The notes under the pieces were generated by a model. The model made no database searches. It had not been told where the DNA came from and saw nothing but the letters and a program-made list of their open reading frames with translations. The position numbers and the translations under genes are program-made. A stretch of 64,000 nt of DNA, taken from positions 89,091-153,090 of the forward strand of contig CP070813.1 in assembly GCA_020344055.1 (NCBI GenBank), read 5' to 3'. Shown here piece after piece: positions 40,124 through 41,404 of the stretch. This stretch comes from Candidatus Zixiibacteriota bacterium (GTDB lineage Bacteria; Zixibacteria; MSB-5A5; UBA10806). The first letter of the stretch is position 1. Each line of letters opens with the position of its first letter.

Positions 40124-40225
40124 CATTTTGATTTTTTACGATCCGATGATATCTTTACCGGGAACGATTTTGTTGATACTAAAGTATTAATTGAGTATCG
40201 AAATTAATTGTTGGAAAGGGATGTA

Positions 40226-41404
40226 ATGAGGAAAGCGTTTTCGATCTTCTGTCTGGTTCTGGCGTTATCCGTTATAGAGTCTTTCGCTCAGGGCCCGGAG
40301 TCATTTGATGATGCCAAAAACCTGGCCGTTTCTCAGGGGAAACCCGTGCTTATGGAATTCCTGCGCCCCGGCTGAGAATACTGCGAACAGGCCGCTCGTG
40401 AAGCGAAGTCAGATCAGGCTATAATTAAAGCGCTGGAGAACGTGGTACACATTTCCTTTAATGTCCAGGAGGGGGAGGGCATCGAGCTTTCGAAAACGTA
40501 TAAAGTAGGACATACCTTTCCGGTTTTTATTCTGACCGACGGTAACGGCGATATCATATATCGCTGGACGGGGTATACCGGAGCGCCGAGATTTATATCC
40601 TCACTGAATAAGGGCATGTCGGATCTTACGACGGTAAAAGAAAGGATCGCCATGTATGACTCCGATCCTACCCATGACAGGGCGCTATTGCTGGCTCGAT
40701 ATTTTGTCGATACCGGCGAGTATCTTGACGCTATAGCATACTTCAGGGAAGCGGAAAAGTTAAAGCCGTCGAGTAATATAGATTATTCTTATGATATTTT
40801 CGCCAACAGCGCCAACGCCGCCTGGAAGGATATGCTGTCGTTCGAGGAGGTCCTATCGGTGGCCGATTCGATTTTATACGCTTCGAATAAAGATAATAAG
40901 AGTATTGTCAGGGTAGCGCGGGCCATGAGTCGTCTAACAAGAAAACTCGAAAAAGAAGAGTATGTGAAAAAGTATCTGCAGGCCGGCCTGGACGCAGCTG
41001 CCGGGTCCCGCGATGAAAAGAACAGAGATACACATACCTCGCTTTCGATTGAATACGCCCTTCAGGTCGAGAATGATACCATAAAAGCTATAACAATGAA
41101 AAAGAAAAGCATGGGGACCGACTGGACAAAGAATCCGGAGAAGTTTTACAATTATTCAAAATGGTGCCTGGAGAGAAAAGTCGCTTTGAGCGAAGCGGAA
41201 ATGCTGGCAAAAAAGGCGGCGCACTTAGCCAAGGGAGCGGAGTTCAAGGCTCAGGTATATAATACCATCGCGGAAATCTGTTTTGCCAGGGGAAACCTGG
41301 AAGAGGCTATAAAAATAATGGATCTGGCCATCGAACAGGATCCCGGCAACATGCAGTATCAGGATAGGCAAGAGCAATATCTGGAACAGTGGGAAAAAAG
41401 GTAA
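40226..41404 (+). CDS. Exported thioredoxin-fold + TPR protein, probable selenoprotein (UxxC; TGA at 40373-40375)
   Basis: ATG at 40226 with an upstream GAAAGGG RBS, signal peptide, then GKPVLMEFLRPG-TGA-EYC continuing in frame into track ORF 40442..41404. cis-Pro loop TFPVF; C-terminal TPR repeats. Confidence 0.85.
40376..40412 (+). promoter_or_regulatory. Putative bacterial SECIS hairpin
   Basis: GGC-CGCT (40390-40396), loop CGTGA (40397-40401), AGCG-(AA bulge)-GTC (40402-40410). The loop begins 22 nt after the TGA. Confidence 0.5.

Follow-up and report, generated by a model that had tools for sequence, protein, structure and literature searches.

An exported thioredoxin–tetratricopeptide repeat protein of Zixibacteria, divided by gene callers at a probable selenocysteine codon

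The 64,000-nucleotide stretch of a Candidatus Zixiibacteriota bacterium genome analysed here (the window; C1:89091-153090, where C1 is the single contig, CP070813.1, of the 3.83-Mb genome G000) contains at 40226-41404 what is very probably one gene for a 392-residue exported selenoprotein with a UxxC active site, whose likeliest role is that of a DsbD-fed periplasmic reductase or isomerase. Positions are those of the window unless C1 is given, and the features under discussion are collected in Table 1. Codon 50 of this gene is an in-frame TGA that, on comparative sequence evidence, is almost certainly read as selenocysteine (Sec, U). The original prediction, made from the window's letters and its list of open reading frames (ORFs), had described an exported thioredoxin–tetratricopeptide repeat (TPR) selenoprotein of the UxxC type split by the ORF caller, and that description is now supported by the selenocysteine genes of the genome, by a homologue column that holds either TGA or Cys, by coding constraint on both sides of the TGA and by a covarying hairpin downstream of it.

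The standard ORF list divides this locus, recording only a 55-residue frame at 40208-40375 that ends at the TGA and a 320-residue frame that runs from a GTG at 40442 to 41404. The ATG at 40226 starts the sequence MRKAFSIFCLVLALSVIESFAQGPES…LRPG, which stands directly before the in-frame TGA, and from this ATG the frame runs for 216 nt into the ORF at 40442; we confirmed this run, together with the positions first given for the ATG, for the TGA (40373-40375), for the downstream TGC (40382-40384) and for the 392-residue frame as a whole. Homologues of full length align over residues 1-392 of the product. Gene callers and all public annotations treat the TGA as a stop, and were it a true one the locus would be either a pseudogene or a 49-residue exported peptide followed by a 320-residue TPR protein starting at the GTG. 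In our AlphaFold2 (AF2) model, however, that GTG start cuts the thioredoxin fold after helix 1, and the shortened product loses both its signal peptide and its active site, as had been foreseen. No help came from a promoter and terminator scan of the sequence, whose counts were not above those of shuffles.

Evidence on how the TGA is read comes from relatives. A six-frame search of 60 of them gave 47 copies, down to 30% identity, with full-length homologues (~390 aa) in relatives at the level of genus, family, order and class, most of them with exactly one in-frame TGA and the rest with none. Of the 47 copies, 33 have the TGA at precisely the column where the window gene has it, in motifs that include UEYC, UQYC, UEHC, USAC, UGSC and UNTC, and Cys occupies that column in the other 14, as CEYC, CEFC, CPYC, CGPC or CGYC. 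The initial alignment, which had placed the TGA on the nucleophilic Cys of thioredoxin and the TGC on the resolving one, is thus matched by Cys in the same column of 14 homologues and by Cys53 in all 44 full-length homologues. In a wider sample of 201 genomes drawn evenly across the phylum, the family was present in 61 (40 of 108 genera), all within the window's class; one TGA was found in 47 of the 75 copies and more than one in none. A TGA that keeps the same column across a whole class, and that only Cys replaces, speaks against a true stop, and relatives with a sense codon and no other TGA-bearing homologue, the picture expected of a recent nonsense mutation, are not what was found. A sequencing error at the TGA was considered and excluded, because the same TGA is kept in dozens of independent genomes.

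Coding constraint leads in the same direction. Over the 15 codons before the TGA, the entropy at codon positions 1, 2 and 3 is 0.97, 0.73 and 1.51 in Sec forms and 1.03, 0.79 and 1.58 in Cys forms; because these values are nearly equal, selection on the N-terminal piece as protein is, as judged by this measure, the same with a TGA following it as with a Cys codon. Codon-position entropy shows conserved coding downstream of the TGA as well as upstream, and purifying selection in one frame on both sides is a further point against termination.

Shortly downstream of the UGA lies a hairpin that resembles a bacterial selenocysteine insertion sequence (SECIS), with positions counted here from the U of UGA as 1. 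Its G-containing loop (40397-40401) begins 22 nt past the A of the UGA, as originally noted. Sec forms share the pairs 18-36, 19-35, 20-34, 21-33, 22-32, 23-31 and 24-30 around a loop at 25-29 that usually reads CGUGA, in which G26 and G28 are invariant and U27 is kept in at least 90%. Paired cells amount to 88.7% in the 33 Sec forms versus 58.2% in the 14 Cys forms, and control structures slid by 1-3 columns reach 34-46%. Five of the seven pairs show compensatory changes among the Sec forms, that is, changes on both sides, such as U-A to C-G at 24-30, G-C to A-U at 22-32 and U-A to C-G at 20-34, and none of 500 shuffles reached the observed pairing or covariation. The four innermost pairs are intact in every Sec form and broken in about half of the Cys forms. 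In nearly all Sec forms the local minimum free energy structure is the shared helix, averaging 6.2 contiguous bp and -7.2 kcal/mol; the average in Cys forms is 1.2 bp. Third-position entropy over hairpin codons 6-11 is 0.60 in Sec forms versus 1.67 in Cys forms, and 1.5-1.7 in the flanks of the Sec forms, values which indicate that synonymous sites are frozen only over the hairpin and only in Sec forms. Covariation and synonymous-site constraint confined to the TGA forms would be difficult to reconcile with a codon that simply ends translation.

Three results count against this decoding. No other hairpin in the family is as weak as that of the window gene, which has 4 canonical bp and reaches about -5.6 kcal/mol when the bulged lower stem is counted, a thermodynamic weakness that also favours a true stop; as a consequence, folding the 68 nt that follow the UGA as a single sequence gave an unremarkable structure, no better than shuffles (z = +1.28); and no Rfam SECIS model matched when 40200-40600 was scanned at E up to 10. 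The window hairpin is therefore convincing only through comparative evidence, which extends to its closest relatives. Four genomes of the window's genus, whose copies of the protein are 63-81% identical, show 96% identity over nt 13-38, where 7 of 8 third positions do not vary, and only 11% of third positions are identical over nt 39-90. Because the hairpin region is near-fixed while later third positions diverge, the element is, by this comparison, constrained in the window's genus too. The 15 nt right before the UGA (40358-40372; CTGCGCCCCGGC plus flanks) are likewise invariant at synonymous sites within the genus. A long-range pairing that encloses the UGA, proposed by RNAalifold from the four same-genus sequences (CGGCU, spanning the U of UGA, with a downstream AGGCCG), was rejected, having zero covariation and being absent from the wider family.

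The genome has the full machinery that such decoding would require. A selenocysteine tRNA, the product of selC, is detected by Rfam RF01852 at 68.8 bits, above the cut-off, and is called by ARAGORN as SeC with anticodon TCA; selA (452 bits), selB (365 bits) and selD (343 bits) each exceed their curated NCBIfam cut-offs and lie adjacent to one another. SelD itself has one in-frame TGA and is thus a Sec-containing SelD. Reassignment of TGA throughout the genome was rejected, as TGA terminates 707 of 2471 ORFs of at least 200 aa (~29%); TGA is still an ordinary stop genome-wide, and any recoding must therefore be local. Within the window, too, the four TGAs cited earlier as ordinary stops end open frames of 80-486 codons. 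Taken with the homologue column, the selection on both flanks and the covarying hairpin, this machinery leaves a true stop extremely improbable.

The history of the family can be read from a maximum-likelihood tree, which resolves two deep paralogue clades with support 100/100. The window gene belongs to clade A. Clade B includes a second Sec-containing thioredoxin–TPR paralogue of the same genome (L048, C1:2121351-2122445, minus strand), which has 36% identity, the motif WUGSC and a 7-bp hairpin, GUUCGCU[CGUGC]GGCGGAC. Sec predominates in each clade and Cys forms occur here and there in both; at least 4 Sec/Cys changes are needed to account for the strongly supported branches, and the parsimony count is 7. 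The simplest history appears to be a Sec ancestor older than the duplication, with Cys taking over repeatedly, at least four times, because a hairpin at the same offset is common to both clades. One replacement may be caught shortly after the event: L042 (G022:C66), with TGC and the motif CGYC, is a near-twin of the same-genus L040 (G019:C147), with TGA and the motif USYC, and still folds the hairpin UUUGCC[CGUGA]GGCAAA, which reads as the fossil SECIS of a very recent Sec-to-Cys switch. A separate copy with the motif CEYC (L060, G010:C6:879485-880616) is broken into two frame segments that overlap, the first of which has a TGA at another place; the explanation is a frameshifted pseudogene or a mistake in the assembly.

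The protein specified by the restored frame has a predicted signal peptide, a thioredoxin domain and a long helical arm. Searching 1.84 billion cluster representatives with a profile gave 268 clusters of the family at E <= 1e-30. The best 150 of these 268 divide into 87 of full length and 63 calls that have lost their N-terminus, beginning within the thioredoxin fold at a point just past the Sec column. The N-terminus is hydrophobic in 79 of the 87 full-length representatives; one of the collected homologues (L037) has a lipobox-like MAGC instead. An AF2 model built from ten full-length family members reached a predicted local distance difference test (pLDDT) score of 88 and a predicted template modelling score of 0.78. 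In this model residues 1-21 are disordered (pLDDT <50), in keeping with a signal peptide, and residues 27-132 adopt a canonical, uninterrupted beta-alpha-beta-alpha-beta-beta-alpha thioredoxin fold in which U50 opens helix 1. Pfam PF13098 (Thioredoxin_2) matches residues 36-124 at 37.1 bits (cut-off 27), with a weaker match to Thioredoxin_7. PDB matches to the N-terminal part, by Foldseek and HMM searches, include the Bacteroides "putative disulphide-isomerase" 2kuc (1.6e-8), DsbD-gamma 2fwh, 2lst and a Thermus thioredoxin. By Foldseek, the C-terminal part matches TPR superhelices, including CTPR and the OGT TPR, and Pfam TPR_2, TPR_8 and TPR_14 score above cut-off at residues 342-378. No solved PDB chain spanning both domains was among the Foldseek and HMM matches listed.

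Conservation is concentrated at the active site and at one patch of the helical arm. Across the 44 homologues the conserved residues are U/C50, C53, P99 and W114 in the thioredoxin domain and W300, W313, C314, E316, L321 and E325 in the helical domain, C314 being a third near-invariant Cys. P99, whose counterpart in 2kuc is the Pro of HAYPT, is the residue of the cis-Pro loop TFPVF that had been picked out from the window sequence. CxxC stands at the U50 column in 82 of the 87 full-length representatives, mostly as CGPC or CEYC.

Table 1. Positions of the predicted selenoprotein gene, its parts and the associated selenocysteine genes
Feature	Position	Strand	Remarks
Full selenoprotein coding sequence	40226..41404	+	392 codons including predicted Sec50; TAA 41402-41404; translated with TGA=U
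Predicted signal peptide of the Sec secretion type, residues 1-21	40226..40288	+	MRK, AFSIFCLVLALSVI, ESFA; predicted cleavage between ESFA and Q
Thioredoxin-fold domain, residues ~27-132	40304..40621	+	Thioredoxin_2/Thioredoxin_7, DsbD-gamma-like
TGA, predicted Sec codon (U50)	40373..40375	+	codon 50, N-terminal nucleophile position of UxxC
TGC, resolving Cys53 of UEYC	40382..40384	+	conserved in 44/44 full-length homologues
SECIS-like hairpin	40390..40410	+	upper stem 40393-40396/40402-40405 (CGCU/AGCG), loop 40397-40401 (CGUGA)
Possible lower stem of the window hairpin	40390-40392/40408-40410	+	3 bp, across a 2-nt AA bulge
Mis-called 320-aa 'TPR protein' ORF	40442..41404	+	GTG start within the thioredoxin fold, 216 nt after the ATG
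cis-Pro codon CCG, P99 of TFPVF	40520..40522	+	invariant in 44/44 homologues; 86/87 representatives
All-helical TPR-like solenoid, residues ~137-391	40634..41398	+	14 helices (AF2 model)
Conserved W313-C314	41162..41167	+	W313 44/44, C314 43/44 homologues; each 82/87 representatives
Adjacent selD-selA-selB cluster	C1:1600362-1604601	-	NCBIfam profile matches

These features suggest a working cycle for the protein. By analogy with E. coli fdhF, the paradigm of UGA decoding through SelB and a hairpin, SelB-GTP carrying Sec-tRNA(Sec) would bind the hairpin when the ribosome arrives at the UGA, and Sec would be inserted in place of termination. The N-terminal signal peptide would then direct export to the periplasm and be cleaved. 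There Sec50 would attack a substrate disulfide or sulfenate, Cys53 would resolve the selenylsulfide intermediate, the 14-helix TPR solenoid would hold the client protein, and electrons from DsbD would drive reduction or isomerisation. From fold and genome content, we give a DsbD-fed reductase or isomerase roughly even chances or slightly better, because the domain is DsbD-gamma/TlpA-like without a DsbA insertion, the Cys relatives mostly have CGPC, and DsbD is present, as a full-length DsbD-like frame of 636 aa at C1:42173-42808. What speaks against this functional assignment is that we infer which way catalysis runs, what donates the electrons and what the clients are, and that the absence of DsbA and DsbB could equally make the protein the oxidant. 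Nor does any conserved neighbour point to a pathway: synteny downstream of the gene (GNAT, transglutaminase-like and OCD genes) is confined to the genus and no partner gene is kept in a distant relative, so that gene context offers no functional clue.

As an oxidant, in line with the original suggestion of an oxidative-folding catalyst, the same selenoprotein would be a periplasmic catalyst of disulfide formation that replaces the missing DsbA/DsbB for secreted proteins, including those of the type IX secretion system (T9SS). DsbA (PF01323), DsbB (PF02600) and VKOR (PF07884) are undetectable genome-wide, secreted T9SS cargo is abundant in the window and at related loci, and selenylsulfides are efficient oxidants in folding chemistry, all of which counts for this possibility. 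We nevertheless consider it unlikely, as the modelled thioredoxin domain lacks the helical insertion of DsbA and instead matches DsbD-gamma and thioredoxin-type reductases, no PF01323 match is found in the 392-residue protein, the Cys relatives mostly have a CGPC of the reductase type, and no re-oxidising membrane partner is evident while DsbD, a supplier of reductant, is present. The organism itself has many secreted T9SS proteins and no canonical disulfide-forming pathway. A bolder version, in which the family is chiefly responsible for forming and isomerising disulfides in the envelope through a self-contained relay of Sec50, Cys53 and Cys314, the last placed in a client-holding TPR groove, seems to us very unlikely; if true, it would constitute a selenium-based alternative to the Dsb system in anaerobes that have neither DsbA, DsbB nor VKOR.

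The helical arm invites another comparison, with the chaperedoxin CnoX/YbbN, a cytoplasmic protein that joins a thioredoxin domain to a TPR domain and has no Sec, and of which a structure is presumably in the PDB. On this model the window protein would be a periplasmic chaperedoxin or an enzyme of peroxide and sulfenate defence, its TPR arm holding unfolded or oxidised clients while Sec reduces sulfenic acids or hydroperoxides. The parallel in architecture, the favoured place of Sec in peroxide and sulfenate chemistry and the conserved helical-domain patch with its third Cys (W313-C314) are consistent with such a role, which we judge quite unlikely even so. CnoX was not among the PDB matches listed by phmmer, by the profile search or by Foldseek, whether in sequence or in fold; the window protein has a predicted signal peptide, whereas CnoX is cytoplasmic; and no peroxiredoxin-type motif is found. 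Membership of CnoX/YbbN was accordingly rejected and the protein is an analogue at most, with no homology detected, but the earlier statement that no characterised family has this architecture overlooked CnoX/YbbN. Between these proposals the DsbD-fed reductase or isomerase is the one that we prefer.

No class of bacterial selenoprotein is commoner than the thioredoxin-fold UxxC proteins, and the present proteins are a new family within that class, real but unsurprising. What is distinctive is the fused TPR solenoid with its W-C patch, the predicted envelope location, the two ancient Sec clades and the compact CGUGA-loop hairpin. The closest solved structures, DsbD-gamma and 2kuc, are the best sequence and fold matches to residues ~20-131 and share the W/x-CxxC motif, the cis-Pro and the periplasmic location, but they have Cys rather than Sec and no TPR arm, and DsbD-gamma is joined to a membrane domain. 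NCBIfam has no model for the family, and none of its models comes near its cut-off. The best NCBIfam match, VPGUxxT type 2 (NF041383), is a thioredoxin-like selenoprotein whose 'PGU' resembles the RPGU of the window's genus; membership was rejected at 16.6 bits against a cut-off of 275, its motif is UxxT and not UxxC, and the PG is not conserved in the window's family, which has EGU, DDU and EWU elsewhere. Among catalogued selenoproteins, the searchable text of two inventories (PMC9312934, PMC13188914) lists a predicted 'Thiol:disulfide interchange protein' family (PF13098, UxxC; representative WP_011366075.1) that, like the window protein, is an exported thioredoxin fold with Sec first in UxxC and a SECIS within the ORF. 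The likeness was established from the shared Pfam domain and motif. That family is listed as single-domain, whereas the window protein adds a ~255-residue TPR solenoid with the W-C patch, and unlike it the window's family forms two deep paralogue clades and, in the 201-genome sample, is confined to one class of Zixibacteria. The searchable text of these 2022 and 2026 inventories mentions neither a TPR fusion nor Zixibacteria, and the same holds for that of the BSepDB paper (PMC13326102), which excludes its family table.

Other selenoprotein candidates came to light in this genome and its relatives. A crude genome-wide scan, which required a stem of at least 5 bp and so missed the window gene itself, returned 81 candidates, mostly spurious; of these, only the clade B paralogue and a cluster of four tandem genes looked convincing. 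This cluster lies outside the window at C1:794130-798906 (plus strand) and comprises four tandem paralogues of ~350-365 aa, each with an in-frame TGA in the motif …GEMxTNxS-U-(G/P)xC-Y… and a strong 8-9 bp hairpin, GCUGAUCUG[GUCU]UAGAUCAGU, 24 nt after each TGA. One copy has Pfam Omp28 (55 bits), FlgD_ig and Por_Secre_tail domains and an N-terminal signal peptide, and the four are candidate T9SS-secreted selenoproteins of the cell surface or the extracellular space. Omp28 is not mentioned in the searchable text of the selenoprotein inventories. As an offshoot of the very unlikely relay reading, the thioredoxin–TPR family might partner with these Omp28-type UxxC candidates of the same genome. 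In other families of the class, many frames of ~290-320 aa have a distantly related thioredoxin domain and exactly one in-frame TGA (e.g. G053:C2:43470-44036, G038:C13:11034-11504 and G060:C8:62764-63276), and these may belong to the VPGUxxT family, whose NF041383 profile has 287 positions.

Public databases list the gene, the second copy in its genome and much of the family, namely 63 of the best 150 cluster representatives and 47 of the 75 copies in the phylum sample, as shortened "TPR repeat proteins" without signal peptide and active site. The same-genus orthologue in CP070742.1 (GCA_020348065.1, "Candidatus Zixiibacteriota bacterium"), for example, is annotated as a 320-aa "tetratricopeptide repeat protein", and identical shortened calls recur, as in P0001 and P0012 of that sequence. 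Some related metagenome-assembled genomes are labelled "uncultured Ignavibacteria bacterium". A family model with a flagged Sec column would correct hundreds of such records and extend the ~111 catalogued bacterial selenoprotein families, and the hairpin, with its 4-7 bp and CGUGA loop, is a compact SECIS variant, represented by many sequences, that escapes the Rfam models. For the Zixibacteria, our analysis provides a predicted selenium-dependent redox enzyme of the envelope, and the repeated replacement of Sec by Cys within its family supplies a natural series in which to ask why selenocysteine is kept.

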